Source of the DNA: Candidatus Hermodarchaeota archaeon
GTDB lineage: Archaea; Asgardarchaeota; Hermodarchaeia; Hermodarchaeales; Hermodarchaeaceae
Length of the DNA stretch: 18,170 bases
NCBI GenBank assembly: GCA_016840135.1
Contig: JAEOSX010000168.1
Coordinates: 1 to 18,170, forward strand
Direction: 5' to 3'
The translations under genes and the position numbers were made by a program. The notes beneath the pieces are model-generated. The model made no database searches. It was not told the DNA's origin and saw nothing but the letters and a program-made list of their open reading frames with translations. Below are positions 1-13,829 of the stretch, piece after piece; positions within the stretch are counted from its first letter, which is position 1, and each line of letters opens with the position of its first letter.

Positions 1-498
1 CGCTCCTTGGTGCGAGACACGCTAACAGCGCGACAGCTGCTTGAAGCAGAGGGTTCCAGCTGGGAGGAGTTTCTCCTAGAGGAACACATCACTGAAAGAT
101 TTCCAGAAGCTTCAGGGAAGCTTCAGATAGGAGAACAAGCACCTCAGGGAGAGACACCTGTAGAATTAACAGGCCAGACCTCGGCCAAAATGGCGGCTAA
201 AGCAGCAGACATAGTCTCTGATATTATTACACTAATTGATATCGCCAAGCTTGGTGATGTCGCCAGAATGGATTTAATCGTACCCTTACTAGACGATGCA
301 ATTATCTTACTCACGAAATATCCGAATTTTCCCCCTGACTATTGGATTCTAATTGCATTGAAAGAGTGGCGGGATAGGCTTCAACAGCGTGACCCACGTG
401 ATAAACTCTCACCAGAAGAAGCAAAACACCTTGAATTTCAGTCAATCCGATGGTTGAATGATTTCAAACGACGTCTTCGGGAGATGGCTGCCGAGTAA
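1..498 (+). CDS. vps28: ESCRT-I subunit Vps28-like, 5'-partial. The frame is open to the left window edge, so the TTG at nt 7 is probably not the true start.
   Basis: The C-terminal ~100 aa (nt ~184-495) match, motif for motif, my recollection of the human VPS28 C-terminal four-helix bundle. AADIVSDIITLIDIAKL..ARMD compares with IADVVSLFITVMDKLRL..RAMD; PPDY with PPDF; KEW..RL with SQWL..L; and DKLSPEEAKHLEFQS..WLNDFKRRL with DELDDSQVRQMLFDLESAYNAFNRFL. There is no stop between nt 1 and 7 in this frame. It is the first gene in a run of ESCRT genes. Confidence 0.8.
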   Translation, partial: RSLVRDTLTARQLLEAEGSSWEEFLLEEHITERFPEASGKLQIGEQAPQGETPVELTGQTSAKMAAKAADIVSDIITLIDIAKLGDVARMDLIVPLLDDAIILLTKYPNFPPDYWILIALKEWRDRLQQRDPRDKLSPEEAKHLEFQSIRWLNDFKRRLREMAAE

Positions 499-516: not shown

Positions 517-813
517 TTGATGAAGGGTTCAGCGTGGTCATTTGCAGAGATGCGAGAGCGGCTGGTGAATGTTATAAATAAAGCAAATCTACAGATAAAC
601 GCTGAATATGTTCTTGAGGACCTCGATGTGGTCGTCGCGTTCGCTCAGGCTATGCTTGGTAACAACCATCTGGTTACAACTGAGGCACAAGAATGGTACG
701 GATACTTCTGGGATAAGTACCGCAATAACCTAGAACAACATGTGGAGGAGCACGAAGCACGTCGTTTTGCGATGTGTGCAGAGATGTGGTTAAATTACAT
801 TCGACAGATTTGA
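517..813 (+). CDS. Small all-helical hypothetical protein (98 aa), possibly a stand-alone Vps28-C-terminal-domain-like four-helix bundle. The true start may be the ATG at 520.
   Basis: It fills the gap between vps28-like and vps22-like on the same strand (18 bp and 12 bp spacers). The tail EEHEARRFAMCAEMWLNYIRQI parallels the upstream gene's PEEAKHLEFQSIRWLNDFKRRL, and the earlier VINKANLQ...LEDLDVVV parallels LIDIAKLG...PLLDDAII. The similarity is pattern-level only. Confidence 0.5.
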   Translation: MMKGSAWSFAEMRERLVNVINKANLQINAEYVLEDLDVVVAFAQAMLGNNHLVTTEAQEWYGYFWDKYRNNLEQHVEEHEARRFAMCAEMWLNYIRQI

Positions 814-825
814 GGAGGACTTGCT

Positions 826-1563
826 GTGTGTGGACTTCATGAAATAGAAAAACGAATAGAGATGGATGCTGCTTATCGACGGAAACGTGCCAAGCTTATG
901 CTCAAAGAACTGGAAAATATGCTTCAAACTATCGCGGAACTAGGCAGCCAAGCGGAAAATTTCGAAAGATCATATGGTGAAATTCTAGAAGATACGCCAG
1001 AGCTTGGTGAGAAGGTTGCAGCAATTGCTAGAGAACTTGGGATCACCCTGCCCAGTGTTTCAGCGCCCGTTGATGTGGAAGATAAGCCAGGGCTGTTCGA
1101 GCGCATCACAGGACGTGGACGTTTCTACGAACAGCTAGGATTACAAATTCTTGACCTAGCTAAACGGCGGAGAAGTGAAACTGGGGGTATAATGACTCTT
1201 GCAGAAGTTGTAATCTTGGTAAATAAACGTCGCCGCCACAATGTTTCTCAGGTTGATGTGGCACGTGCCATCCACCACCTTACTAGTGCTAAGCTGATTC
1301 CAGGGCTACACAAGCTCAGGTCCGGCATCAAGATTGTCGAGTTTATTCCTCGTGAATTTACTGAAGACCAAGTTATCGTGCTTTCCCTTGCTAGCCGAAC
1401 TGGGTACACCACACTTGAAGATGTTATGACTCAAACTCGGTGGAATCGAGAACGCGCACTTGCAGCGCTCCAGAGCCTCAAAGATTCAGGTGCGGCTAAA
1501 CTTGACGAATCTTACGCTCATGGAACCCGATACTTCTTCCCTGGACTTACTCCTTCAGCATAA
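826..1563 (+). CDS. ESCRT-II subunit Vps22/Vps36-like (EAP30 family, closest in pattern to SNF8/Vps22). The GTG start at 826 is uncertain.
   Basis: GRFYEQLGLQILDLAKRRRSETGGIMTLAEV...VSQVDVARAIHHL compares with human SNF8 GDFYYELGVQIIEVC...NGGLITLEEL...VSQDDLIRAIKKL as I recall it. The second winged-helix part VIVLSLASRTGYTTLEDVMTQTRWNRERALAALQSLKDSGAAKLD...YFFPGL compares with VVLQLAEKNGYVTVSEIKASLKWETERARQVLEHLLKEGLAWLD...YWLPAL. A GGAGG-like motif lies at ~813-820 upstream. No GLUE/PH-like N-terminal domain is visible. Confidence 0.88.
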   Translation: MCGLHEIEKRIEMDAAYRRKRAKLMLKELENMLQTIAELGSQAENFERSYGEILEDTPELGEKVAAIARELGITLPSVSAPVDVEDKPGLFERITGRGRFYEQLGLQILDLAKRRRSETGGIMTLAEVVILVNKRRRHNVSQVDVARAIHHLTSAKLIPGLHKLRSGIKIVEFIPREFTEDQVIVLSLASRTGYTTLEDVMTQTRWNRERALAALQSLKDSGAAKLDESYAHGTRYFFPGLTPSA

Positions 1564-1614: not shown

Positions 1615-2352
1615 TTATATTCTTATTTCTAGAACTTCCCGCTCCTTGTCTAGCCAACGGGCTCTCTTCTGTTTCACAAGGATGTCAAGAATTTCGCGAA
1701 GTTCAGATTTAGGGAGACTTTCCAGATCGTCACGGTGCTCCTTTAATTTGAAGAGCGTGAAGGTTGTACGACCAGTATCTAACGCCCAGCGATGAATCTC
1801 ATCTGCCCATTCCTCATCAGTCTTCCAGAAAACCCGGATTATACCCTCTGCTTCATCAATCCAGCGACCTAATTCCTGTTTCACAAGACTTCCCAGTATG
1901 AATCTGGCGGCACGTTGCCTGTCAGACCGTATATCATTGAAGGGGTCCAACATTACTAGCTTACGGGTAGACACGATGTGAAGGAGAACTTCCCGACAGA
2001 AATCAAGCGTGAACCCAGCCCATTCGGCGCTCCATTGTTCAATGTCTTCTTCTGAGCTAGGAATTGCGAACATGAAAGCATAGCGTCCTCGTTTTGCAAT
2101 CCAGACGTACCTTGATTTGAGGTGCTTGACTGCTAGTCTTGCAAGTTCCTCTATGCTCCTTTCCTCTTCCTCCTCAACTGGCATAACAAGAACAGCAGCT
2201 TCTTCCTCTGAATCGTCCTCTTTCTCGATTGAACGGCTTGTCTCCTGTTGTGCTTTTTCAAGAACTTGGAGATATTCCTCATCACTGAGGTGCACGGGTT
2301 TAGGCGAATCCTCCTTCTCTTTTGTCCGCCTTCTTGTCTTCTCCTTGACCAC
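1615..2352 (-). CDS. vps25: ESCRT-II subunit Vps25-like, with a ~75-aa highly charged N-terminal extension
   Basis: WSAEWAGFTLDFCRE...DPFND...LVKQELGRWIDEAEGIIRVFWKTDEEWADEIHRWALDTGRTTFTLFKL...LREILDILVKQKRARWL compares with human VPS25 LAAWCSLVLSFCRL...SPLFNN...LRKKGNLEWLDKSKSSFLIMWRRPEEWGKLIYQWVSRSGQNNSVFTLYEL...LLRALQALQQEHKAEI as I recall it. The GTG start lies 13 bp after the vps4 stop, preceded by an AGGGGATGA SD-like motif, which implies a vps4-vps25 operon. Confidence 0.85.
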   Translation of the reverse strand: MVKEKTRRRTKEKEDSPKPVHLSDEEYLQVLEKAQQETSRSIEKEDDSEEEAAVLVMPVEEEEERSIEELARLAVKHLKSRYVWIAKRGRYAFMFAIPSSEEDIEQWSAEWAGFTLDFCREVLLHIVSTRKLVMLDPFNDIRSDRQRAARFILGSLVKQELGRWIDEAEGIIRVFWKTDEEWADEIHRWALDTGRTTFTLFKLKEHRDDLESLPKSELREILDILVKQKRARWLDKEREVLEIRI

Positions 2353-2365
2353 AACTCATCCCCTA

Positions 2366-3523
2366 CTAGGAGCCGTGCTTCTCCTCCCATTCCTTATATT
2401 TTTGCAACTCCTCTGGCGTAATTGTCGTATGGATGTGACTCAAACTCTCAACGAAATCTTTCTGGATGACAGGTCGTATCTGCTTCTCCTTATCCCGAAT
2501 AGCCCCTGAGATATCCAGTTCACGAATCGGTTCAAGAGAAGCCTCCCGACAAATATGAGCGATATCGGAGCCTGCATACCCCTCAGTCATATCGCCAAGC
2601 TGGTCAAAGTCAACATCGCTTTCCAACTCGATGCCCCTCGTGTGAATCTCGAAAATCCGTACTCTTGCTGCCTTCTCGGGGGTAGGAACATAAATACGCC
2701 GTTCGAAACGCCGGCGAAAAGCTGGATCAATATCCCAAGGTCGGTTTGTCGCACCCAGCACAACAACACGGTCACCCTTCCGGCTCTTCATACCATCAAT
2801 CTCAACAAGGAATTGGGTCTTCAGGCGACGCTCCCCGCCCACTTGGTCAGTACCACGCTGGGCTGTTAAAGCATCAACCTCGTCAAGGAACACAATAGAA
2901 GGCTGAGACTTCCTAGCAGCTGTAAAAAGCTGCTTAACCAGTCTCTCTGATTCACCCAACCACTTCGAAACAAGCGACCCAGCATCTGCGTTGAAGAATG
3001 TAGCCTCAGTCTCGTTCGCCACCGCTTTGGCAATCAAAGTTTTACCACAACCAGGAGGCCCAAAGAGCAAAACTCCTCTCCAAGGTTGACGCGCACCAGT
3101 AAACAAATCTGGACGGAGAATAGGTAAGATGATGGCTTCGCGCAACGCTTGCTTTGCTTCCTCAAGGTTCGCCACATCATCCCATTTAACGCTCGGTTTC
3201 TCACGAACAACCAAACTAGCTATGTCGTCCTGTAACTCCGAATCTGGACCCTCTACTTCTGTATCCCCGATATCAGGACCAGGACCCCCCACTCTAACAC
3301 GCCCACTCCGTAGTAATTTTGCTCGAGCAATATACTGCTCAGCTCTCTCCAAGGCAATAAGCCTCATCTTTGGCATCCTCGAAATCCTCGCTGCCTTTGC
3401 GAGAATATCTGCAGCCTCGATGTAAATGGAAGCAGCCTCCGAGCGTTTGCCAGCCCTATCATATTCAGATGCCTTGCTCGCTTTTTCTTCAGCGATTCTC
3501 ATAAGATATTGTGCACTGCTCAA
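2366..3523 (-). CDS. vps4: Vps4/CdvC-type AAA+ ATPase with an N-terminal MIT domain. The start is either TTG at 3523 or ATG at 3502.
   Basis: An N-terminal three-helix MIT-like region (AEEKASKASEYDRAGKRSEAASIYIEAADILAKA...ERAEQYIARAKLL) is followed by an acidic/Gly-Pro linker. It has Walker A GPPGCGKT and Walker B IVFLDEVD. ATNRPWDIDPAFRRRFERRIYVPTPE is the typical Vps4/katanin-clade signature, and the C-terminal helix is EELQKYKEWEEKHG. Confidence 0.95.
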   Translation of the reverse strand: MSSAQYLMRIAEEKASKASEYDRAGKRSEAASIYIEAADILAKAARISRMPKMRLIALERAEQYIARAKLLRSGRVRVGGPGPDIGDTEVEGPDSELQDDIASLVVREKPSVKWDDVANLEEAKQALREAIILPILRPDLFTGARQPWRGVLLFGPPGCGKTLIAKAVANETEATFFNADAGSLVSKWLGESERLVKQLFTAARKSQPSIVFLDEVDALTAQRGTDQVGGERRLKTQFLVEIDGMKSRKGDRVVVLGATNRPWDIDPAFRRRFERRIYVPTPEKAARVRIFEIHTRGIELESDVDFDQLGDMTEGYAGSDIAHICREASLEPIRELDISGAIRDKEKQIRPVIQKDFVESLSHIHTTITPEELQKYKEWEEKHGS

Positions 3524-3745: not shown

Positions 3746-4357
3746 ATGTCAGCAATAAGACGATTCCAACAATGGCTCGGCGGAAAACCATCACTCAAGA
3801 AGCTAATCTTCCGACTAGACGTTTTTTGCCGTAAGTTGGATTTGCAGAGGAAGATGTTGGAGAAGGAAGCTAGTAAGAGTCGTCAGAAGGCGAAGAGATA
3901 CAGGCTTCAAGGCAATATGGATGCTGTTCGTCTTTACCTGCAGCATCACCTGCGGTTCCAGAAGTGGGCTCTTAGCGTTGATGCATATCGTTTACGTATT
4001 GAAGGATTACAGACTCAGCTTCGGCAGAGCGAGGCAATGGGCGATCTTGCGAAGATTCTCGGCCAGCTTAATGCTGCCTTGGGCGGGCTGAAAACCCAAG
4101 TCAAGGTGCCGGAGGTGGCCCAGCTTGTTGATCAGATTGAAGGGAACCTACGCCACTTCGAGATGACCCAAGAGATTGCGGATGCAGGCATGGAGCGTAT
4201 GTCAGTATCTACTGAAGTGACTGATGGCGAAGTAAGCCAGGCATTAACAGATCTTGACCAGGAAATTGAAGTAGAAACAGGTACCGCACTTCCCCAACCA
4301 GAACAGCGCGTTTCGCAACTAGAGGAAGAAATTCGAAGGCTTAAGGAGGAAAGCTAG
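3746..4357 (+). CDS. ESCRT-III protein, Vps2/24/46 (CHMP1-3)-like, Snf7 family
   Basis: The N-terminus RRFQQWLGGK compares with yeast Vps2 SLFEWVFGK. The core KAKRYRLQGNMDAVRLYLQHHLRFQKW...LRIEGLQTQLRQSEAMGDLAKILGQLNAALGGLKTQVKVPEVAQLVDQIE compares with CHMP2 KMAKQGQMDAVRIMAKDLVRTRRY...SLKIQTLKSNNSMAQAMKGVTKAMGTMNRQLKLPQIQKIMMEFE. An acidic linker precedes a C-terminal MIM1-like helix SQLEEEIRRLKEE. Its stop abuts the next ATG (TAGATG). Confidence 0.88.
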   Translation: MSAIRRFQQWLGGKPSLKKLIFRLDVFCRKLDLQRKMLEKEASKSRQKAKRYRLQGNMDAVRLYLQHHLRFQKWALSVDAYRLRIEGLQTQLRQSEAMGDLAKILGQLNAALGGLKTQVKVPEVAQLVDQIEGNLRHFEMTQEIADAGMERMSVSTEVTDGEVSQALTDLDQEIEVETGTALPQPEQRVSQLEEEIRRLKEES

Positions 4358-5014
4358 ATGGCAAAAGGGAGATTCAGCTCATTATGGGAAAGGCTATTCC
4401 CTAGGAAGCCTGAACCGAAGGAAGATACTATTGCCCGGATTCACCGGGTTGTCGATGCGCTTGAGGTTCGGGGTCGCCAATATGAGACCAAGGCCAAAGA
4501 TTCTCGTGTCAAAGCTATTCGTTATGTGAAGCGCGGAGACAGGAAAGCGGCAAAGCTCCAACTCAGGAGACGATCAAGATATCTACGCAAGGCAAGGTTG
4601 GTCGAACAAGAAATTGACCTAATGGAGCGGGGCGTAGAAGCCATCGAACAGGCTAAGGGCGAGGCTGAAGTTATGGGGGCTCTCCGTGGAATCGGCTCAA
4701 CCCTTGAGCAGTTACGCGAAACTGCGTCACCCGAATCTGCTCGGGAAACCATCTTAGAAACCCAAGCACTTATCGAGGAAGCAGAGTCAACTGAAGAGAT
4801 TCTAGGCCTCGGTTTGGACGACGATGAGTTGGATGCTGACGTCGAAGCAGAATTGGAAGACATTGAGACACTAGTCGCTCTTGAAGAGGCTGGACAACTA
4901 CCCACGGTTCCTACAGGTGAATCAGAAGTGACTACAGGGGAGCTAACGTCAGAAGAAAGACGTGAACGTACCCGCAAAGAGCTTGATCGCCTTCGAAAGG
5001 AACTAGAAGAATAA
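4358..5014 (+). CDS. ESCRT-III protein, Vps20/32/60 (Snf7/CHMP4/6)-like
   Basis: The N-terminal amphipathic motif RFSSLWERLF compares with yeast Snf7 MWSSLFGW. The core VKRGDRKAAKLQLRRRSRYLRKARLVEQEIDLMERGVEAIEQAKGEAEVMGALR compares with CHMP4 KNKRAALQALKRKKRYEKQLAQIDGTLSTIEFQREALENANTNTEVLKNM. The acidic stretch is LDDDELDADVEAELEDIE. It carries a MIM2-like LPTVPT (4898-4915) and a terminal helix KELDRLRKELEE. Confidence 0.88.
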   Translation: MAKGRFSSLWERLFPRKPEPKEDTIARIHRVVDALEVRGRQYETKAKDSRVKAIRYVKRGDRKAAKLQLRRRSRYLRKARLVEQEIDLMERGVEAIEQAKGEAEVMGALRGIGSTLEQLRETASPESARETILETQALIEEAESTEEILGLGLDDDELDADVEAELEDIETLVALEEAGQLPTVPTGESEVTTGELTSEERRERTRKELDRLRKELEE

Positions 5015-5060: not shown

Positions 5061-6557
5061 CTAAAAGAAGGGGTCATCAGTTACAGAGTGTTCCCCAGTC
5101 AATTCGCCAATTCGGGTTTCTACTAGGTAGAGGTCCCGGCTCAAGGAACGATATTGCTTGAAGAAGCTTTCGTTAGATATTTTTCCCTCGTCGAATTGTC
5201 GCTTCAGAAGCTTCAATGTAGCTTGGAGGCTATACTTCTGTTGCCGTAACTGGAAGAGCTGGTCATGGGGAAGTCGGCTCACTTCGCTCCTTGAAGGTGG
5301 ATATTGTGCTGGTTGATGGCTTTGTGCCGTGGTATGATGACTATGGAGACCCGAGGGGACTGAGGGAATATCTTTGGTAACAGCTTGATCTATCAGCCTG
5401 TCAATTTCATCTCGTAGCACCATGATATCCACTTTCATGCTAGTCACCCGCATGGAGCCCTTGATAGTGACAAGACTGTGTTCACTGAAGTTCTGAGCCA
5501 ATGCAATTGTTTTTGGAATCTCTTGGAGTGTCTCAGAAGTTCCCCGAAGCCTTAATACATCCTCTTCAGTAGTGACAAGAAGCCTTCGACGGATGCGCCC
5601 CTCCTCTGATGTACTGGTGATTGCAGAAAGAGGTACAATACGAATCACAGATATACCCCGCTTTATCAAGCCAGTTTGACCTAGAAATAGAAGCCGCTGG
5701 GTCGTCACGAAAAGAGTTCCATGACTCACCCCCTTTCCTGTTTCTGTTTTACTCAAACTTACTAGTGGAATCGCAGCAACAGCTTTCTCCTCTTCACTGA
5801 TGTCAAGGTGTTCGGCGTATTTTGAAAACAGCATATGCCATTGTTGCAGCGGTACTAACTCCCTTTCTATAGTTCCCAATATGTCTTCTAATTCTTTGAT
5901 TAGCTCTAGACAATATCTTTCATAATCGTCGATGTCCTCTTGTATGCCTTCTATTAGTCCAGCTAGAAGTGGAAAATCTGAAACTTGCCATTTTTCGGGA
6001 TGAATAAAACGAGCTTTGCTTGCCTTGTGTCGTTCAACTACTTTGTGAGCTCGAAAGACTATTCGTTCATTTACCGCTGGAATCCTTTTCGTGATAAGTT
6101 CCAGTAATTTCTTCTCTATTTCGGGATTGTGAAGGAAACCATTATTACGTAACTCTCGGATATGCCATCGCAAAGTTCTCAAACGAGTAGCAAACCCTGA
6201 CAGTAATTCATGTCCCACACGAAGCTTGTAGTATGTTGTTTGAAACCGACTAACAAGTTTTTGCCGCATATTATGGATTGGTGTCACAGCTGTTGAACCA
6301 CAGTTGACACACAAATGCTCCCTTCGGGTCGCTCGCTGTGCTGGTTCTCCACACTCGCTGCAAACCGCCCCCTCCTCAGTTTCCTCCATACTGCTGGGAC
6401 CACAGCGGCTACAAGTGTTAAACTCGCTTACTTTCTGTTTAGAACATTTCAAACAGAAAACATAGCCACAATCCATACAACAGCGCTCAACCACACGAAT
6501 ACGGCAAATCGGGCATAACTGATCACTGCTTTGTGGTCCTTGTTTTGGTAAGGACAT
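5061..6557 (-). CDS. Multidomain hypothetical protein (498 aa): RING-like Cys cluster, zinc ribbon, helical region, GRAM/GLUE/PH-like domain and SHOCT-like C-terminus
   Basis: It has an ATG start and a long uninterrupted ORF. Six CxxC pairs occur at aa 15-86 (nt 6300-6515): CPIC-x11-CGYVFCLKC-x10-CSRC, then CSEC-x13-CVNC. At aa ~255-357 (nt ~5487-5795), GKGVSHGTLFVTTQRLLFLGQ..IRIVPLSAI..RRLLVTTEEDVLRLRG..LQEIPKTIALA has the strand pattern of GRAM/GLUE/bacterial-PH domains. At aa ~432-486 (nt ~5100-5264), LKRQFDEGKISNESFFKQYRSL is SHOCT-like. All domain calls are motif-level inference. Confidence 0.7.
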   Translation of the reverse strand: MSLPKQGPQSSDQLCPICRIRVVERCCMDCGYVFCLKCSKQKVSEFNTCSRCGPSSMEETEEGAVCSECGEPAQRATRREHLCVNCGSTAVTPIHNMRQKLVSRFQTTYYKLRVGHELLSGFATRLRTLRWHIRELRNNGFLHNPEIEKKLLELITKRIPAVNERIVFRAHKVVERHKASKARFIHPEKWQVSDFPLLAGLIEGIQEDIDDYERYCLELIKELEDILGTIERELVPLQQWHMLFSKYAEHLDISEEEKAVAAIPLVSLSKTETGKGVSHGTLFVTTQRLLFLGQTGLIKRGISVIRIVPLSAITSTSEEGRIRRRLLVTTEEDVLRLRGTSETLQEIPKTIALAQNFSEHSLVTIKGSMRVTSMKVDIMVLRDEIDRLIDQAVTKDIPSVPSGLHSHHTTAQSHQPAQYPPSRSEVSRLPHDQLFQLRQQKYSLQATLKLLKRQFDEGKISNESFFKQYRSLSRDLYLVETRIGELTGEHSVTDDPFF

Positions 6558-6627: not shown

Positions 6628-7377
6628 TCAGGTTTCAGGACGTCGAGAAGTTGATTGAGGGCGCCTAACAAGGAAATTCTCTAGCCCACGAGGAATTGGA
6701 AAATCGATTAACACGATTCTCTTTCGCAAAGGCAAAGCTACATTGAAAACAGGTGTTTTTCCTACTAATCCTTGGGTCAACCCTTGGTGGGCATGACCGT
6801 GAATAGCCATGGTTGGATTGTGCTTATTGACTAGTCTCTCAACACGCCTGCTTCCCATTTGTGGGAGTGCACGTCTCATCTCACCACTGAGAGTCTTGAA
6901 GGTTGGAGCATAATGCGAGAGAAGAATAGTGTGTTCAGCTTCAGAGCTTGCTTTTGCTAGGAGTGTGCTCAATATTCCTACACGCTGTGTGTAACGGTTA
7001 CGGATCCCTTTCACATATCGAGACTGCCAAAAGGTCGGCTGATCAAGAACCCCCCTCGTGCCTACAATTGCTACGCGCTCTCCGTTTAAAGACATGACTT
7101 TCATCTCGTCATCTAGAAAGGTGATGACATCCTTGGTCCTCTTGCGTAATTCATCCTTTATTGTATCGTACTCTTCGTTTCCGAATACTGCGAATATCGG
7201 GCATTCTAGCTCTTTTAGTTGTTCTGTTAATGGTTCTATGGCATCGACGTTACCACGATTAACCAGGTCACCTGCCAACAAGAACAAAGATGTATTATTA
7301 GGTAAATGGCTCAAAGACTTCACAAAGGAGTCCCGGAATCGGGGCCAGTGTATGTCGCTTGTCGCAGCGAGCAGCAC
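6628..7377 (-). CDS. Calcineurin-like metallophosphoesterase (GTG start)
   Basis: The full ordered set of MPE motifs is present: SDIH (DxH), AGDLVNRG (GDxxxRG), FGNEEYD (GNHE-type), SHYAP and HGHAHQG (GHxH). It lies 23 bp downstream of the prenyltransferase gene on the same strand. Confidence 0.85.
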   Translation of the reverse strand: MLLAATSDIHWPRFRDSFVKSLSHLPNNTSLFLLAGDLVNRGNVDAIEPLTEQLKELECPIFAVFGNEEYDTIKDELRKRTKDVITFLDDEMKVMSLNGERVAIVGTRGVLDQPTFWQSRYVKGIRNRYTQRVGILSTLLAKASSEAEHTILLSHYAPTFKTLSGEMRRALPQMGSRRVERLVNKHNPTMAIHGHAHQGLTQGLVGKTPVFNVALPLRKRIVLIDFPIPRGLENFLVRRPQSTSRRPET

Positions 7378-7400: not shown

Positions 7401-8303
7401 TTACAGGGCACCTAGGATGAAATTCACAAGACCTAGGAAGGCACCTAATTTATCAGCTAAACTAGCGCGGGAGGCATTTCTTATAGGGTTTCGTAAGATG
7501 AGGATAGCAGAGGCAGCAACACAAAGGGATCCAGGGAAAAGGAGAATTATATAGAGAGGGCCTACCCAAGACAAACCAAACCAATTCGCGAACCAAGGTA
7601 AAAAGAACCCTGAAACCCCGATTACATTGAAAACGGCAGCCACTCTAGCAGCTGTACGCGTGCCGTATTTACGTGCAAGAGTTTGCACATCACGAAGTTC
7701 ATCACCCTCAATGTCTTCGATACCCTTTATGGCTTCTCGACCCTGGAGAACACTTGCAGCGGTAATGAAGTAAACCCAAATAACCGGCGGAACCAGTTGA
7801 GAGGTTACGAGCGAGCCATAGAAGAGTCCAAAGGCGAAGCTTACAGAAACGGCGAAGTTTCCTAAGAGACCCATTACCTTTCCTTTTGCAGCATAAATTA
7901 GGCCGACTAGACAGAAAAGTGCAGCAATTGCTAGTGTCCAAATCCCAACTGCGGATAAGGGAATGGTAAAAATGGAGAATAGAAGACCAAAGAAAATTAG
8001 TAAAGCTGTCCATACTTTAGCTTGCTTAACGGACATCTCACCACTTGGGAGTGGTCGGTTCGGTCGGTTTACTCTATCAATTTCAAGGTCATAAATATCA
8101 TTAACAACATTCCCCGCCGCGGCAATGCAAAGATAGGTTATAGAAGTATAGAGCAGAACCAAACCTAGCGGAGTGGTGAACAAGTGCGCTAAATCAAATC
8201 CATAGACGAGTCTATGGCTTGTCAGAACTCCGATGATTGTGGTAAGAGCACCAACGAAAGTATTTCCTGGGCGAGTAATCGTAATGAAGGCTTTTAGAGA
8301 CAT
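7401..8303 (-). CDS. UbiA-family integral-membrane prenyltransferase, most likely digeranylgeranylglyceryl phosphate (DGGGP) synthase for archaeal ether lipids
   Basis: The first Asp-rich motif is NVVNDIYDLEIDRVNRPNRPLPSG and the second is KGIEDIEGDELRDVQTLARKYG. There are about 8 hydrophobic segments. The size (~300 aa) and motif spacing are typical of archaeal DGGGP synthases. Substrate specificity is inferred. Confidence 0.8.
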   Translation of the reverse strand: MSLKAFITITRPGNTFVGALTTIIGVLTSHRLVYGFDLAHLFTTPLGLVLLYTSITYLCIAAAGNVVNDIYDLEIDRVNRPNRPLPSGEMSVKQAKVWTALLIFFGLLFSIFTIPLSAVGIWTLAIAALFCLVGLIYAAKGKVMGLLGNFAVSVSFAFGLFYGSLVTSQLVPPVIWVYFITAASVLQGREAIKGIEDIEGDELRDVQTLARKYGTRTAARVAAVFNVIGVSGFFLPWFANWFGLSWVGPLYIILLFPGSLCVAASAILILRNPIRNASRASLADKLGAFLGLVNFILGAL

Positions 8304-8480: not shown

Positions 8481-9458
8481 ATGGAGTTCGATGGGATAAC
8501 TCACAGATTTCAGGAACTCCCTAGCTTAGAAAGTCAGATAAAACTCGGCTATACGCTGAAAGGATGTACCGCGCACCCTTTCAATCTTGCACTGAAGGAT
8601 TTCCGTAATCTAGTAATTTTAGGTGAGCGGGCAAAGGATATTTACTATCTATTCTTGAGTCAACTCTGCGACCAGCTTCAGCTGCCGATTGTGGTTCTCA
8701 AAGAGAGCAATGAAGATGCTTTTGAAAGCCTGATATGTGAGACTCCAATTTGGCACCTGGATTTGACAATCAGTCAGGTAACCTTGAATCCACTAGACTT
8801 ACGGGGTGTTGCCACACCCTCCTCTGCTGTTATTCTAGCCAACCTACTTTCAGATATCTACCAGTTGTCTCCAAAAGCAAAGAATCTCCTTCAAGATGTA
8901 GTATGGAACATCATCCAGACTAGTCATAAACCTTCAATCCAAGAACTCCGCCAAAGACTTTCATCTCATAGAGAAAACAGAACTGCTTACCGTGAACTCT
9001 CCTCATTAATAGAGGCTCTTAACGCTGATTCCCTCTTTAGCTCCTTTGACACTATATCTCTTGGTCGTTTTCACTCCATACCAACAATCATCTCAATACC
9101 AAGAAATAATAGAGGTTACCTGATAGCCAACCTGCTCCTATTAAAGCTCCTGGCTCTCCAAGGCGCTGCTCTGCCCCCTCTGCTTCTCTTCAATCCTCCA
9201 CTCAATCCTCTTCTCATTGAATTGCTTTTCAAGAGTTATGCAATCAAAGGCGACTTTCTCCTCTTCCTTGACTCGAAGGGAGAGTTTCCTCACATTGACC
9301 CACTGATTCCCCATAATCTGGTTATCTCAAGTCTGCCGGATTCCTCTCCCTTTTACCAGCAATTAACCGATGAAGAACGCAAGGTTCTCCAAAGTCAACG
9401 TGATTTTGTCGTTGTCAAGCTGTTCGGCAAACCCGCTCAGCTAGTAAACATCTTCTAA
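8481..9458 (+). CDS. HerA/FtsK-superfamily (DUF87-like) ATPase homolog with degenerate catalytic motifs; a predicted inactive paralog of the 13901-16219 gene
   Basis: It is collinear with the large ATPase in this window. IKLGY...NLVILGERAKDIYYLFLSQLCDQLQLPIVVLKESNEDAFESL matches FWIGY...HLGTFGTTGSGKTVFCKIILEEAARHGIPIIALDPQGDLASL. VTLNPLDL matches ISVNPLVL. PPLLLFNPPLNP matches PRLVFFTDEIAPF. LFKSYAIKGDFLLFLDSKGEF matches LFRQARKYGIICMVATQSPRDL. Walker A (GERAKD), Walker B (NP in place of DE) and the ATQ motif (LDS) are all lost. Confidence 0.6.
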   Translation: MEFDGITHRFQELPSLESQIKLGYTLKGCTAHPFNLALKDFRNLVILGERAKDIYYLFLSQLCDQLQLPIVVLKESNEDAFESLICETPIWHLDLTISQVTLNPLDLRGVATPSSAVILANLLSDIYQLSPKAKNLLQDVVWNIIQTSHKPSIQELRQRLSSHRENRTAYRELSSLIEALNADSLFSSFDTISLGRFHSIPTIISIPRNNRGYLIANLLLLKLLALQGAALPPLLLFNPPLNPLLIELLFKSYAIKGDFLLFLDSKGEFPHIDPLIPHNLVISSLPDSSPFYQQLTDEERKVLQSQRDFVVVKLFGKPAQLVNIF

Positions 9459-11188: not shown

Positions 11189-11788
11189 CTAAAGACCAAT
11201 CGCGCGGCGCATGTTCTTCATTAGCTTATCAGCAGCAGGTATTTTCAAGACAGAAACCGCTTTCTCTGCTGGCCCCATAAAGTCCATGAAAAGGGACTTG
11301 GGAGAACGACCTGCTTGGACGAGCTGAAGAGCATGAAGTGCATTGGCGAACCTATCAGCAGCTTCAACAATCAGCGCCTCTCGGCTAGACTGACCTTGAT
11401 ACCCCTCCCACGCCTCTTGCAGAGGAATGCGTAATTTCTGAGGAAGTTCTCCAATAAGAGAAGTCATAACCTGGTTTTCAGCTCGCCTCTTAACATCATA
11501 GAACTCTTGGAGCTCCTCTGTAGGGTCACGAGGAATATCCCCAAGACGAGACTCTGGCAGATCATGGAATAAGGACATCAAGAAAATCTTCTCAAGATCC
11601 ACCTCGCCTCCATCGAGTTTCGCTAGAAGATAAGCGATAACTGTTACCGAATGAGAATGAGCAGCAACATTCTCTGCAGTAGCTGAAGGAATACCGCGAA
11701 GCAACCAACCAACTCTCAAAACCCACTTGAGATTATCAACAGCTTGTAGAAAATCTAGTATCGCCATTTTAAAAACACCAAATATCAC
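11189..11788 (-). CDS. HD-domain phosphohydrolase, YfbR-like 5'-nucleotidase family. The start is GTG at 11788, overlapping the upstream gene by 4 nt, or ATG at 11767.
   Basis: LRVGWLLRGIP..ENVAAHSHSVTVIAYLLA followed by LFHDLPESRLGDIP matches the H...HD...D metal-binding pattern and the R.W....ENVAEHS signature of YfbR-type HD proteins. Confidence 0.8.
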   Translation of the reverse strand: MIFGVFKMAILDFLQAVDNLKWVLRVGWLLRGIPSATAENVAAHSHSVTVIAYLLAKLDGGEVDLEKIFLMSLFHDLPESRLGDIPRDPTEELQEFYDVKRRAENQVMTSLIGELPQKLRIPLQEAWEGYQGQSSREALIVEAADRFANALHALQLVQAGRSPKSLFMDFMGPAEKAVSVLKIPAADKLMKNMRRAIGL

Positions 11789-12192
11789 TTGAAGAGTTTA
11801 GCTATTTCACGACCAAAGTGTCTAAAGACAGAAACTGTATGTCCGAGCGCGTCGATTTTTACACCTGCACCAATCAGAACGAGTGGACCAGCGTCAGTCA
11901 CGACAATGTATCCCTTTTCCCCTCGAACGATAAGCTCGTATAATGGATCAAACTTCAGCTTAGTAGCTGCCTCAACTCCAGTTTGTAACAAGACAGCTGA
12001 AATCGCTGACATCAAGTCAGGATCGATGTCCACTCCCTTCGTCGCGCTATAAGCGACTCGTCGACCACCTTTCGTGACAGCCGCTAGTGTTTCCAATTCT
12101 GTGTACTGTGTAATTTCCCGTAAGAATAACACGAGTTGTTGTGCTTCGTTCTCGCCCATCTGAAACTGCAATAATTTCTCCTCTGATTTCAT
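11785..12192 (-). CDS. Roadblock/LC7 (MglB-like) domain protein
   Basis: It is 135 aa with the characteristic alpha-beta-alpha layout: N-terminal helix LLQFQMGENEAQQLVLFLREI, then LAAVTKGGRRVAY, a helix SAISAVLLQTGVEAATKL, then ELIVRGEKGYIVVTDAGPLVLIGAGVKID. It lies 16 bp downstream of the gelsolin-like gene. No sequence-specific catalytic motif is expected for this family. Confidence 0.65.
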   Translation of the reverse strand: MKSEEKLLQFQMGENEAQQLVLFLREITQYTELETLAAVTKGGRRVAYSATKGVDIDPDLMSAISAVLLQTGVEAATKLKFDPLYELIVRGEKGYIVVTDAGPLVLIGAGVKIDALGHTVSVFRHFGREIAKLFK

Positions 12193-12208: not shown

Positions 12209-13021
12209 TTATCTACTAGCCTTCGCCCCTGAAGATCGCACCAGCTCTGCTAGGCGACGTTTTTCAACTTGGTATTCTTGTTCTTGTACTTGCTTCAAGA
12301 ATTCAACAGCTAGCACTTGCCCATTCTGAATGACTATTCGGGGCGTGTAACCCTGCGCGAAGAGAACTCCCTCTGGTAGGCTGTCTATTCGTTGTAGCCG
12401 TTGAGTTACAGTCCTTTTTCCTAAGAGAGAAGTTGCTTCTTCTGTTATAGCGAAGGCATCGAATCCTATTAACACAAACTCCCGCCGAAAACCAGGAACT
12501 GGTTCTAACTGTTTCACTTGCTCGATTATTTCTTGAGAGCTATGCGGAACCTGAACAGATTGTTGTTGTGATGGTTTCGCAGTTCGTGCTGTCACCACGC
12601 GTGTGTAGTCTAGTTTGGGCTGGGGGGTTGTAGCTGGTTTGGGCTGACTTGTCTTTGGAGTTGAATCTGGCGATGGAGTGAAGGAACTGTCGGGAGTTTT
12701 TGATGCCGCTGCGTCCGGGCTTGAGGTAGGGGTCTGACTCATAACTTGAAGGAATCCTTCATCCTCTTCTCCCGCATCTTCTGACACAATCTTGTAAACG
12801 AGTCCTCTAACATCACGAATTCTCTGTGCAGAGCGTGCTGCGATGAATTTCTTACGGACTGGTGCATCAACACCTTTCCATATCCATATTCTCTTTTGTT
12901 CGTCATCAATGACGATGAGGACCTGATCTGCTTTCATATGCATGCTAACAGGTTCATCACCTGAAATCTGGTCAACTTCACCAGAATCCCTAACGCTTAG
13001 CAATACCAAATTGTCAGACAA
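12209..13021 (-). CDS. Gelsolin-domain protein (1 gelsolin/cofilin-like domain, Pro/Thr/Ser linker, uncharacterised C-terminal domain); TTG start
   Basis: At aa 30-95, ADQVLIVIDDEQKRIWIWKGVDAPVRKKFIAARSAQRIRDVRGLVYKIVSEDAGEEDEGFLQVMS aligns with human gelsolin G1 [63 protein letters not shown] as I recall it. The linker is TPTSSPDAAASKTPDSSFTPSPDSTPKTSQPKPATTPQPK. The C-terminal ~110 aa look beta-rich and have no motif I recognise. Confidence 0.75.
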   Translation of the reverse strand: MSDNLVLLSVRDSGEVDQISGDEPVSMHMKADQVLIVIDDEQKRIWIWKGVDAPVRKKFIAARSAQRIRDVRGLVYKIVSEDAGEEDEGFLQVMSQTPTSSPDAAASKTPDSSFTPSPDSTPKTSQPKPATTPQPKLDYTRVVTARTAKPSQQQSVQVPHSSQEIIEQVKQLEPVPGFRREFVLIGFDAFAITEEATSLLGKRTVTQRLQRIDSLPEGVLFAQGYTPRIVIQNGQVLAVEFLKQVQEQEYQVEKRRLAELVRSSGAKASR

Positions 13022-13118: not shown

Positions 13119-13829
13119 TTGAAGAAAACTTTTTGTGTTCACACTCATATGAGGCACAGTGAATTTAAACATCTATCTATCGGAGAGAATGTTTTGCGTC
13201 TTATTCTATTAGGTGGAATGTCCACAGGTATAGCCCTAACTTTGCTAGTAATAGCAATATTTCTGGATCCAAGTATCGCGTTTCTAGCTTACCTTGGCTG
13301 CGTCGTATGCACTGGTATTGTTATTGCTTGTGCAGTAGTAAACAGCTTAACGACTTGGCCTGGGTTCGTACACCCCGATGACCGGCTCTGGTCAAACATA
13401 CTAGCCTACCTTCTCACTCTCTTTTCGATTCTTACTCTTGGCCGCTTCCTCAAAGAAGACGTTCGTGCTGATTGGTGGTTCTCCCTTCTGTTCAATGTTG
13501 GCACATTACTACTGTTGGCTTTGATTTTAGTCCTGAGTCTTATTGGTTTGAGTGGTAAGTTTCGACCGAAGGGTCTAGCAGAGGGGGCAGAAGCCAAGGA
13601 CCGTTCAAAGGAGGTTGCTTCTCGTCTAATCCTTTTTGCACTCCTTGTCGGTGCAGTTATGGCGTTTGGTCAAACAGGTCTAGTACTTCTTTGGGATTAC
13701 TTCAATACAACCTACGGTTCGCCCCTTAGTTACTACTACATCTCTATTACAATCGGAAGCATATCGACTCTAATCCTGTTCACTCTAGGAATAGTTCTAC
13801 GCTCAAAATACGAATCAGTTCGAACGTAG
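13119..13829 (+). CDS. Polytopic membrane protein, hypothetical. The start is TTG at 13119 or ATG at 13149.
   Basis: There are six or so long hydrophobic segments, for example ILLGGMSTGIALTLLVIAIFL, AFLAYLGCVVCTGIVIACAVV, ILAYLLTLFSILTLG, WWFSLLFNVGTLLLLALILVLSLIGL, LILFALLVGAVMAFGQTGLVLL and ISITIGSISTLILFTLGIVL. Short charged loops separate them. No family motif was recognised. Confidence 0.6.
   Translation: MKKTFCVHTHMRHSEFKHLSIGENVLRLILLGGMSTGIALTLLVIAIFLDPSIAFLAYLGCVVCTGIVIACAVVNSLTTWPGFVHPDDRLWSNILAYLLTLFSILTLGRFLKEDVRADWWFSLLFNVGTLLLLALILVLSLIGLSGKFRPKGLAEGAEAKDRSKEVASRLILFALLVGAVMAFGQTGLVLLWDYFNTTYGSPLSYYYISITIGSISTLILFTLGIVLRSKYESVRT

Follow-up and report, generated by a model that had tools for sequence, protein, structure and literature searches.

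On the evidence of its sequence and predicted structure, the 498-aa protein encoded beside the ESCRT-III genes of the window (the whole 18,170-nucleotide stretch of Hermodarchaeota DNA analyzed here) is most likely a membrane-binding arm of archaeal ESCRT-I rather than a novel type of ubiquitin ligase. We consider it probable that the gene is the Hermodarchaeial ortholog of Znr_CC_PH_SB (cog.011556), an accessory subunit of archaeal ESCRT-I. The ORF is complete and real, and its coordinates confirm the initial annotation, which had placed its end 46 bp from the stop codon of an ESCRT-III (Snf7-family) gene in convergent orientation (Table 1). The product of this Snf7-family gene (4358..5014) is an ESCRT-IIIB, with an Asgard Vps20/32/60-like protein and a Heimdall ESCRT-IIIB as its top PDB matches and with a very acidic C-terminal tail. 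Elsewhere in the locus, EAP30 is the only Pfam match of the Vps22/36-like protein, which has no GLUE domain, as the annotation had noted. The 98-aa ORF, considered as a candidate steadiness-box partner in the headpiece, was detected neither by Pfam nor by the family steadiness-box profile, and we do not equate it with the free-standing steadiness-box protein of Loki and Thor ESCRT neighbourhoods (Hatano et al.). A promoter and terminator scan of the gene junction was uninformative, as it applied bacterial consensus patterns to archaeal sequence.

Table 1. Genes of the ESCRT locus and modules of the 498-aa protein (window coordinates).
Feature	Position	Strand	Basis
Vps28	7..498	+	Pfam
98-aa ORF	517..813	+	
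Vps22/36-like EAP30	826..1563	+	Pfam
Vps25	1615..2352	-	Pfam
Vps4	2366..3523	-	Pfam
ESCRT-IIIA (CHMP1/2/3-like) gene	3746..4357	+	
ESCRT-IIIB (Vps20/32/60-like) gene, conserved convergent neighbour	4358..5014	+	Pfam Snf7, PDB matches
Znr_CC_PH_SB-type protein, 498 aa	5061..6557	-	Complete ORF, homologs
Steadiness box (Vps23 core helical hairpin), aa 430-487	5097..5270	-	Pfam PF09454, profile, AF2
Disordered linker, aa 398-429	5271..5366	-	pLDDT below 50 (AF2)
PH-fold domain, bPH/GRAM/GLUE-like, net basic, aa 256-355	5493..5792	-	AF2, Foldseek, Pfam
Three long helices, intramolecular stalk/coiled coil, aa 94-251	5805..6278	-	AF2
CxxC-x13-CxxC zinc ribbon, third predicted Zn site, aa 66-86	6300..6362	-	Invariant C66, C69, C83, C86
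Eight-Cys C4C4 zinc module, B-box/RING-like, two predicted Zn sites, aa 15-52	6402..6515	-	Conserved cysteines

The protein had been annotated as undescribed, but its family is published as Znr_CC_PH_SB (or Znr_PH_CC_SB, asCOG cog.011556), an Asgard-specific family of ESCRT neighbourhoods for which Makarova et al. (mBio 2024, PMC10936438) proposed, on computational grounds, membership in ESCRT-I and a PH domain that associates with membranes. Lu et al. list it as a steadiness/Vps23-box asCOG, and its members include a 650-aa protein of Lokiarchaeum GC14_75 (PMC10936438). Homology searches recovered 35 full-length homologs with 49-81% identity in Hermod/Thor-type MAGs, and a profile search yielded 147 cluster representatives; a second homolog search with a diverse alignment returned the same close relatives only. 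The profile search also ties the window protein to Loki-type members of 600-800 aa (649-aa proteins, E about 1e-36). By this homology to Loki-type members, the window protein is a Hermod-type Znr_CC_PH_SB: it carries three zinc modules, a helical region, a PH domain and a steadiness box, identical in content and order to the published family, and differs not in kind but in being compact, with a short linker. The four-part architecture is retained at about 20% identity, and all named matches are from Asgard archaea (Hermod, Thor, Odin, Baldr, Asgardarchaeia and Loki), many further matches carrying no taxon name.

Judged by its sequence, the C-terminal hairpin (helices at residues 430-456 and 462-487 in the AF2 model) is a bona fide Vps23-type steadiness box. 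The Pfam model Vps23_core scored 27.5 bits on the full protein and 31.8 bits on the isolated tail (gathering cutoff 26.8), and the family profile of this region aligned over its full length with yeast Vps23 in the ESCRT-I crystal structures 2p22, 2f66 and 2caz (E=7e-7 to 2e-5), with weaker matches to TSG101 (E=0.026) and VPS37B (E=0.063). A SHOCT-like tail, as initially annotated, is ruled out, as the isolated tail gave no Pfam SHOCT match at E<=10 and matched Vps23_core instead. The hairpin is homologous to that of Vps23/TSG101 over its whole length, whereas the remainder of the two proteins differs: Vps23/TSG101 has a UEV domain and a stalk that runs into the box, while the window protein has no UEV or UQ_con match, an intramolecular three-helix bundle with a disordered linker before the box, and zinc modules and a PH domain at its N-terminal side that Vps23/TSG101 lacks. 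The family could also have been a replacement for the missing UEV-Vps23 of Thor and Loki; this idea is weakened by its coexistence with true UEV-Vps23 in a Baldr-type cluster and in Hermod genomes, where UEV-Vps23 is encoded elsewhere (Lu et al.).

Upstream of the box, the AF2 model shows three stalk helices (aa 94-138, 145-185 and 192-251, pLDDT 84-98) followed by a PH domain with a seven-stranded sandwich and a C-terminal helix (aa 259-355, pLDDT about 90). This substantiates the annotated resemblance to GRAM, GLUE and bacterial PH domains, with Foldseek matches to 3dcx and 3hsa (TMt 0.64-0.67) and to the human Vps36/EAP45 GLUE domain 2hth (TMt 0.59). Among 52 family members, Pfam assigned bPH_3 to 21, GRAM to seven and the Vps36 GLUE family PF11605 to a single one, which is not the window protein. 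The PH profile found only five sequence matches in the PDB, namely bPH domains and yeast Vps36; the affinity to GRAM and Vps36 GLUE is weak, and the better matches are to bacterial PH domains. No other module of the family is as consistently basic as the PH domain (mean net charge +5.1, positive in 96% of members), with K/R conserved at positions 288, 299/300 and 324/325. The linker between this body and the steadiness box spans 34 residues in the window protein, compared with a family median of about 176 and a maximum of 458. For the full model, the top Foldseek matches were DH-PH RhoGEF-like (E about 2e-5), with a TM of about 0.2 and an rmsd of about 20 A; Pfam gave no RhoGEF match for the target, nor was there one among the family matches listed, and we take the resemblance to be a generic likeness of helical bundle plus PH domain.

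The gene keeps its linkage to ESCRT genes from one Asgard class to another. In each of the 13 Hermod/Thor contigs that reach far enough, the gene and that for ESCRT-IIIB are convergent, and ESCRT genes adjoin it in seven of nine distant Asgard contexts (17-27% identity) in which the other neighbours are unrelated; in the remaining two, no ESCRT gene lies within 8-10 kb. The distant linked genes are nearly always convergent with an ESCRT-IIIB paralog, which is the nearest Snf7 gene in 7/7 loci linked to ESCRT-III and directly adjacent in six of them. A Baldr-type locus (L021) places the family gene beside a full cluster including UEV-Vps23, Vps28 and EAP30, and a Hermod clade with 52% identity keeps the target, ESCRT-IIIB and ESCRT-IIIA together, with about 8 kb of unrelated genes before Vps4. 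The steadiness box and this conserved linkage uphold the part of the initial annotation that foresaw an ESCRT-associated adaptor. Relative to the portions of the published text searched, the convergent linkage with ESCRT-IIIB, the PH domain as sole basic module and a pattern of cysteine loss that favours a cross-brace (see below) appear to be additional; the family itself and its assignment to ESCRT had been published before.

The constancy of the ESCRT-IIIB neighbour raises an alternative to which we give a low probability, namely that the protein acts directly upstream of ESCRT-IIIB to recruit or nucleate it. As an ALIX/Bro1-like bridge parallel to ESCRT-II, it would link ESCRT-I (via the steadiness box) or the membrane (via its PH domain) to the Vps20/32/60-like subunit without an intermediate. 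The 7/7 association and the trio that stays intact in the 52%-identity clade despite the gap to Vps4 would fit such a bridge, and the basic PH domain could bind the acidic ESCRT-IIIB tail. On the other hand, the gene pair is convergent and not co-transcribed, the protein has no Bro1-like domain and the adjacency could simply survive from an ancestral ESCRT cluster. Bridging would moreover be compatible with an ESCRT-I subunit and does not exclude it. In its fullest form, which we hold to be similarly doubtful, an archaeal bridging factor would couple membrane and ESCRT-I directly to the initiating ESCRT-IIIB, bypassing ESCRT-II much as ALIX does but with unrelated domains, and with the B-box/RING-like cross-brace as an oligomerization or ubiquitin-related module; if true, ESCRT-III nucleation would once have been achieved in an ancestral way that was later lost and that is older than the Bro1 and GLUE wiring of eukaryotes.

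The N-terminus bears on a second alternative. Across 52 members (about 20% identity), 12 invariant or near-invariant cysteines form six CxxC pairs and three predicted zinc sites. The annotated peptide CPICRIRVVERCCMDCGYVFCLKCSKQKVSEFNTCSRC indeed occupies residues 15-52, and the separate CxxC-x13-CxxC ribbon that had been described after it is present, with Zn_Ribbon_TF, Zn_ribbon_8 and DZR matches among family members. The proposed ligands, in contrast, have to be revised: instead of C30-x-Y32 or C26, the family conserves C27 in the set C15, C18, C27, C30, C35, C38, C49 and C52 (C-x2-C-x8-C-x2-C-x4-C-x2-C-x10-C-x2-C), whereas position 26 varies (Y/I/L), as does position 32 (A/S/E/V in the family, Y32 in the window protein). 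Compared with the B-box1 consensus, the first six ligands have the same spacing, C-x2-C-x8-C-x2-C-x4-C-x2-C, while the last ligand pair is His...His in B-boxes and C-x2-C after 10 residues here. Pfam zf-B_box matched 14 of the 52 members (best E=2.4e-5) and an ANCHR-like B-box seven; the window protein itself has no Pfam B-box match. Cysteine pairs 1 and 3 are lost together in two members (P0129 and P0130), a pattern that favours an interleaved cross-brace for the C4C4 module, as in B-box and C4C4 RING-like fingers such as TRIM B-box1, the ANCHR B-box and the CNOT4 RING. For the predicted fold of the zinc region, Foldseek returned no significant RING or B-box structure and a lone RING match, BIRC7, at probability 0.14. 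Where the published description gives the N-terminus as 'three Zn ribbons', our data suggest a B-box/RING-like interleaved eight-Cys module plus one ribbon.

An E3 ligase of the RING type, which would attach ubiquitin to cargo or ESCRT subunits and thereby channel them into the pathway, was the alternative initially envisaged; in our view it has only a slight chance of being correct. The N-terminal profile does match true RING domains in the PDB by sequence (COP1 at E=1e-4, RNF4, TRIM31, RNF123 and BRE1), the cysteine co-loss favours a RING/B-box-like cross-brace, and zf-C3HC4_3 is the top, if weak, Pfam match of the isolated N-terminus. However, this match reaches 10.0 bits on the full protein and 16.9 bits on the N-terminus against a gathering cutoff of 27, a RING family is matched at E<0.01 by one of 52 members, and B-box models suit the family better than RING models. 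In RING domains, E2 is contacted by a hydrophobic residue at C6+4, a Pro at C7+1 and a basic linchpin after C8, whereas the family has E/K at C6+4, S/G/Q at C7+1 and Gly in the linchpin position in 38/52 members. E3 activity of the 498-aa protein is unlikely because neither these E2-contact positions nor the RING His position, occupied by the variable residue 32, are conserved, and B-boxes are generally not catalytic. What stands of the annotated RING-like finger is the fit of its eight cysteines to a B-box/RING-like C4C4 module; a canonical RING E3 is rejected on the ligand pattern, the model thresholds and the E2-contact residues, together with the absence of a RING or B-box fold in Foldseek. 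As to the cellular context, Hermodarchaeia encode ubiquitin, but the Asgard ubiquitin cluster already encodes a separate RING E3 (Lu et al.), and Thorarchaeota seem to have no ubiquitin although the family is present in them.

That a generic prokaryotic bPH protein lies beside an ESCRT cluster by chance, a caveat of the initial annotation to which the bacterial PH domains as best PH matches and the two unlinked contexts might lend weight, is effectively refuted by the synteny in distant lineages with unrelated flanks, by a C-terminus that is a steadiness box and not SHOCT, by the Asgard origin of every named match and by the conservation of all four parts at about 20% identity.

In the ESCRT-I model that we favor, the steadiness box would insert into the ESCRT-I headpiece with Vps28, joined where present by UEV-Vps23 and/or a free steadiness-box protein, and the linker would tether the body of zinc modules, stalk and PH domain. 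The basic PH surface would bind anionic membrane and, by analogy with the yeast Vps36 zinc fingers, the zinc module may engage cargo, ubiquitin or the C-terminal domain of Vps28. One protein would then unite two roles that are separate in eukaryotes, that of Vps37/Mvb12 as membrane-binding subunits of ESCRT-I and that of the GLUE domain in ESCRT-II Vps36. Phosphoinositides are the GLUE ligand in eukaryotes; to our knowledge, they are not established in these archaea. This speaks against the model, as do the two distant contexts with no ESCRT neighbour nearby and a candidate headpiece partner, the 98-aa ORF, that the steadiness-box profile did not recognize. In addition, a disordered linker separates stalk from steadiness box, unlike in Vps23 and Vps37, and therefore the geometry of headpiece assembly may differ. 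Finally, the conserved adjacency is convergent, and the gene pair is therefore not an operon. Because the local Vps22/36-like protein has EAP30 only, a PH domain supplied in trans, as the annotation had suggested, is a reasonable analogy, one likewise drawn by Makarova et al. (PMC10936438). The descriptions of the family found in a literature search are computational only.

The likeness to eukaryotic subunits has limits. The PH domain has the superfold and GRAM-like sequence features in common with the Vps36/EAP45 GLUE domain, and yeast Vps36 also carries zinc fingers. These are, however, NZF inserts in GLUE as opposed to N-terminal modules, and the window protein has no winged-helix domains to which its PH domain could be fused as in Vps36. 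Vps37 and Mvb12 are likened to it in the model, as steadiness-box-type subunits that give ESCRT-I a basic membrane-binding element: homology is undetectable outside the hairpin, and the element is a basic helix or MABP domain there versus a PH domain here. A clear Vps37 is absent from Asgard archaea (Hatano et al.).

As a discovery, the window protein adds little to the 2024 computational prediction of the family and its ESCRT assignment. The compact Hermod version, with its short linker, would nevertheless be a convenient construct. Among prokaryotic models for how eukaryotic membrane remodelling arose, Asgard ESCRT is the closest, and this family alone among Asgard ESCRT-I-type proteins has an obvious membrane-binding domain; the family has no counterpart in eukaryotes. 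Knowing whether its binding target is lipid, Vps28, ESCRT-IIIB or ubiquitin would help to explain how the archaeal machinery is directed to membranes and what in the eukaryotic ESCRT-I/II wiring (Vps37/Mvb12, GLUE) took the family's place.

The genes of a complete Asgard ESCRT cluster lie in the window, and the 498-aa ORF that the initial annotation had described is real: it is convergent with the second Snf7 gene, 46 bp separate the two stop codons, and the quoted peptides are found at their assigned residues. That annotation's description of the protein as undescribed did not hold up, since the ORF belongs to a published family, called Znr_CC_PH_SB or Znr_PH_CC_SB (asCOG cog.011556) in the searched text of Makarova et al. 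(mBio 2024, PMC10936438) and placed among the "Steadiness/Vps23 box" asCOGs by Lu et al. The protein is thus a member of a published family of predicted Asgard ESCRT-I proteins, on which full-text literature searches found no experimental work, and the novelty of the finding is low. Three points appear to extend the searched text of PMC10936438: the first zinc module is likely a cross-brace, the PH domain is consistently basic across members, and the convergent pairing is specific to the ESCRT-IIIB paralog.

Coordinates of the target gene, its protein modules and the neighbouring genes (window unless another locus is named)
Feature	Position	Strand	Remark
Vps28	7..498	+	ESCRT cluster
98-aa ORF	517..813	+	ESCRT cluster; L021 16355-16651
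Vps22/36-like EAP30 protein	826..1563	+	ESCRT cluster
Vps25	1615..2352	-	ESCRT cluster
Vps4	2366..3523	-	ESCRT cluster
First Snf7-family gene	3746..4357	+	ESCRT-IIIA, CHMP1/2-like
Second Snf7-family gene	4358..5014	+	ESCRT-IIIB, Vps20/32/60-like class
Target ORF, 498 aa	5061..6557	-	convergent with second Snf7 gene
Metallophosphoesterase	6628-7377	-	
UbiA-family prenyltransferase	7401-8303	-	L024 4845-5690
Rce1-like CAAX protease			L021 9108-9935; L024 3816-4664
325-aa ORF	8481-9458	+	no Pfam family
Roadblock/LC7 or Arf/Ras-like GTPase	11785-12192	-	L018 7757-8704; L019 1195-1710; L020 387-2783
ORFs without Pfam match	12209-13021, 13119-13829		flank HerA/DUF87-type ATPase
HerA/DUF87-type ATPase	13901-16219	-	L017 6038-9079; L023 4625-7348
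Inositol-1-phosphate synthase			L025 4462-5553
ESCRT-IIIA/Vps4 insert			L007 12877-20533; L008 similar
Conserved cysteines, first module	C15, C18, C27, C30, C35, C38, C49, C52		
Conserved cysteines, following	C66, C69, C83, C86		
Beta-rich zinc region	aa 24-93		AlphaFold2 model
Three long helices	aa 94-138, 145-185, 192-251		AlphaFold2 model
Seven-strand sandwich with helix cap	aa 259-355		AlphaFold2 model
Two short helices	aa 365-393		AlphaFold2 model
Disordered linker	aa 398-429		AlphaFold2 model
C-terminal helical hairpin	aa 430-456 / 462-487		AlphaFold2 model

We recovered 35 full-length relatives (49-81% identity) from Hermod/Thor-type MAGs, and an exhaustive profile search returned 147 cluster representatives, of which 51 reach E<=1e-30, with named sources in Hermod-, Thor-, Odin- and Baldrarchaeia, Asgardarchaeia and Lokiarchaeota. 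When the window is compared with loci L004-L016, the target diverges much faster than its ESCRT neighbours: identity between Hermod clades is 51-54% for the target, ~83-86% for ESCRT-IIIA/B and ~70% for Vps4. The AlphaFold2 model, with 24 homologs as input, is confident (mean pLDDT 81) and resolves the conserved domain set of zinc modules, helical stalk, PH domain and C-terminal hairpin. The linker spans 34 aa in the target versus a family median of ~176 aa, and because of longer linkers many members reach 600-830 aa.

Twelve cysteine positions show complete or almost complete conservation among 52 diverse members sharing only ~20% identity. The first eight follow the spacing C-x2-C-x8-C-x2-C-x4-C-x2-C-x10-C-x2-C, whose first six ligands fit a B-box1, and one classical zinc ribbon comes after this module. 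Pfam zf-B_box was detected in 14/52 members and an ANCHR-like B-box in 7/52, and one ortholog bears the NCBI name "B-box zinc finger protein". In two members (P0129 and P0130) Cys pairs 1 and 3 are both lost while pairs 2 and 4 persist with an exact 18-residue spacing, a joint loss that may be a single evolutionary event and that is expected of interleaved zinc binding as opposed to two tandem ribbons. By its sequence pattern the first module is B-box/RING-like and probably a cross-brace. The initial annotation had read it as a RING, with Y32 or C26 as a ligand, and had raised the prospect of an E3 ligase. Resemblance to RINGs is partly borne out, in that the N-terminal profile matches genuine PDB RING domains such as COP1 (E=1e-4) and RNF4, but neither proposed ligand is conserved (position 26 is Y/I/L, position 32 A/S/E/V). 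Moreover, Pfam RING models score 16.9 bits or less on the target, far below the cutoff of 27, and E2-contact-equivalent positions are E/K, S/G/Q and Gly instead of hydrophobic, Pro and basic. Foldseek with a dedicated model of aa 1-100 gave nothing significant, the best matches being zinc-ribbon proteins (E=0.3 or worse) and the matches including one RING (probability 0.14). E3 activity therefore finds no support.

The C-terminal hairpin scores above the curated cutoff (26.8 bits) of Pfam Vps23_core, the ESCRT-I "steadiness box", both in the full protein (27.5 bits) and in isolation (31.8 bits). A profile of this region, built from 21 diverse members, could be aligned along its entire length with yeast Vps23 as present in crystal structures of the ESCRT-I core (2p22, 2f66 and 2caz; E=7e-7 to 2e-5); its matches to TSG101 and VPS37B were weaker. 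The tail had been likened to SHOCT, which went undetected even at E<=10; the turn G-x-I-S-x-x-x-[FY], common to both, probably accounts for that impression. The 98-aa ORF lies between the Vps28 and EAP30 genes in the window and in the Baldr-type cluster L021; it matched neither Pfam nor the family steadiness-box profile, and may correspond to what Hatano et al. describe as a 'free-standing steadiness box' protein.

Foldseek against the PDB returned PH-superfold domains for the sandwich: bacterial PH 3dcx and 3hsa (TMt 0.64-0.67), the GRAM-type PH domains of Lam6 and myotubularin, and the human EAP45/Vps36 GLUE domain 2hth (TMt 0.59, E=9e-4). The "GLUE/GRAM/PH-like" assignment was thus right at the level of fold, with GLUE not specifically favoured: among the 52 members Pfam reports bPH_3 in 21, GRAM in seven and Vps36 GLUE in one, and a PH-domain sequence profile had just five PDB matches, all marginal, of which two are bacterial PH domains, two are entries for yeast Vps36 and the fifth is an unrelated protein. 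This domain is the family's sole consistently basic module (mean net charge +5.1, positive in 96% of members), with conserved K/R columns at 288, 299/300 and 324/325.

In all Hermod/Thor contigs that extend far enough (13/13), the gene faces the same two Snf7 genes in convergent orientation, but as these contigs are collinear over the full 18 kb, this result alone says little. More informative are nine distant contexts, with members at 17-27% identity and unrelated flanks, seven of which are ESCRT-linked. Here, a Snf7 gene is immediately convergent in six (gaps of 3-200 bp; Vps4 and Vps25 are also nearby in one) and 1.5 kb away in another, and two have no ESCRT neighbour; in L021 the member adjoins a full cluster with UEV-Vps23, Vps28, the 98-aa ORF and EAP30. 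In every ESCRT-III-linked distant context the neighbouring Snf7 gene is orthologous to the window's ESCRT-IIIB, and in a Hermod clade at 52% identity the target, IIIB and IIIA remain together, ~8 kb of unrelated genes away from Vps4. This paralog-specific linkage and the retained trio refute the caveat that the adjacency is coincidental, and the conserved linkage suggests that the protein and the initiating ESCRT-III subunit are functionally connected. The insert that splits this clade's cluster encodes an amidohydrolase, a nitroreductase and three ORFs without Pfam match (639, 588 and 127 aa).

Other genes recur around family members. A large HerA/DUF87-type ATPase gene occurs repeatedly near Asgard ESCRT-III genes: in the window its distance from the target is ~7 kb, and in two distant loci it separates ESCRT-IIIB from ESCRT-IIIA (L017, where an unannotated 355-aa ORF lies beside it, and L023); in L024 the two Snf7 genes have an unannotated 457-aa ORF between them. 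In the window and three distant contexts, a member has Roadblock/LC7 and Arf/Ras-like small-GTPase genes no more than 10 kb away, which could be chance, such genes being many in Asgard genomes; the window Roadblock protein (~80% identical across the Hermod clade) is more conserved than the target. The 325-aa ORF keeps its position in Hermod/Thor loci and diverges fast (33-67% identity). Upstream of the target and co-directional lies a UbiA-family prenyltransferase gene, with a metallophosphoesterase gene in between; in L024 a UbiA gene immediately precedes a homolog that is just ~20% identical, and Rce1-like CAAX-protease genes adjoin homologs in L021 and L024, neighbours that may suggest a connection to lipids or prenylation. 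In a single context without ESCRT neighbours (L025) an inositol-1-phosphate synthase gene directly precedes a member; the PH domain and the question of archaeal inositol lipids make this placement interesting.

We propose that the steadiness box would dock, alongside Vps28 and further steadiness-box proteins, into the headpiece of ESCRT-I; Hatano et al. reported yeast two-hybrid contacts of Vps28 with a free-standing steadiness-box protein in Loki and Thor. The flexible linker would tether a rigid zinc-stalk-PH body, whose PH domain would bind anionic membrane, in keeping with the membrane association expected by Vps36 analogy in the searched text of Makarova et al. (PMC10936438). The zinc module would contact cargo, ubiquitin or the Vps28 C-terminal domain, like the zinc fingers of yeast Vps36, an analogy also drawn there. 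A role as simple substitute for UEV-Vps23 is disfavoured, since both proteins coexist. More adventurous, and compatible with the paralog-specific adjacency to ESCRT-IIIB, would be a direct bridge from ESCRT-I and membrane to ESCRT-IIIB, analogous to ALIX. As the local Vps22/36-like protein is EAP30-only, the earlier proposal that the target could provide a GLUE-like function in trans is reasonable. Asgard archaea lack Mvb12 and a clear Vps37 (Hatano et al.), the membrane-binding ESCRT-I subunits that the protein would resemble in function.
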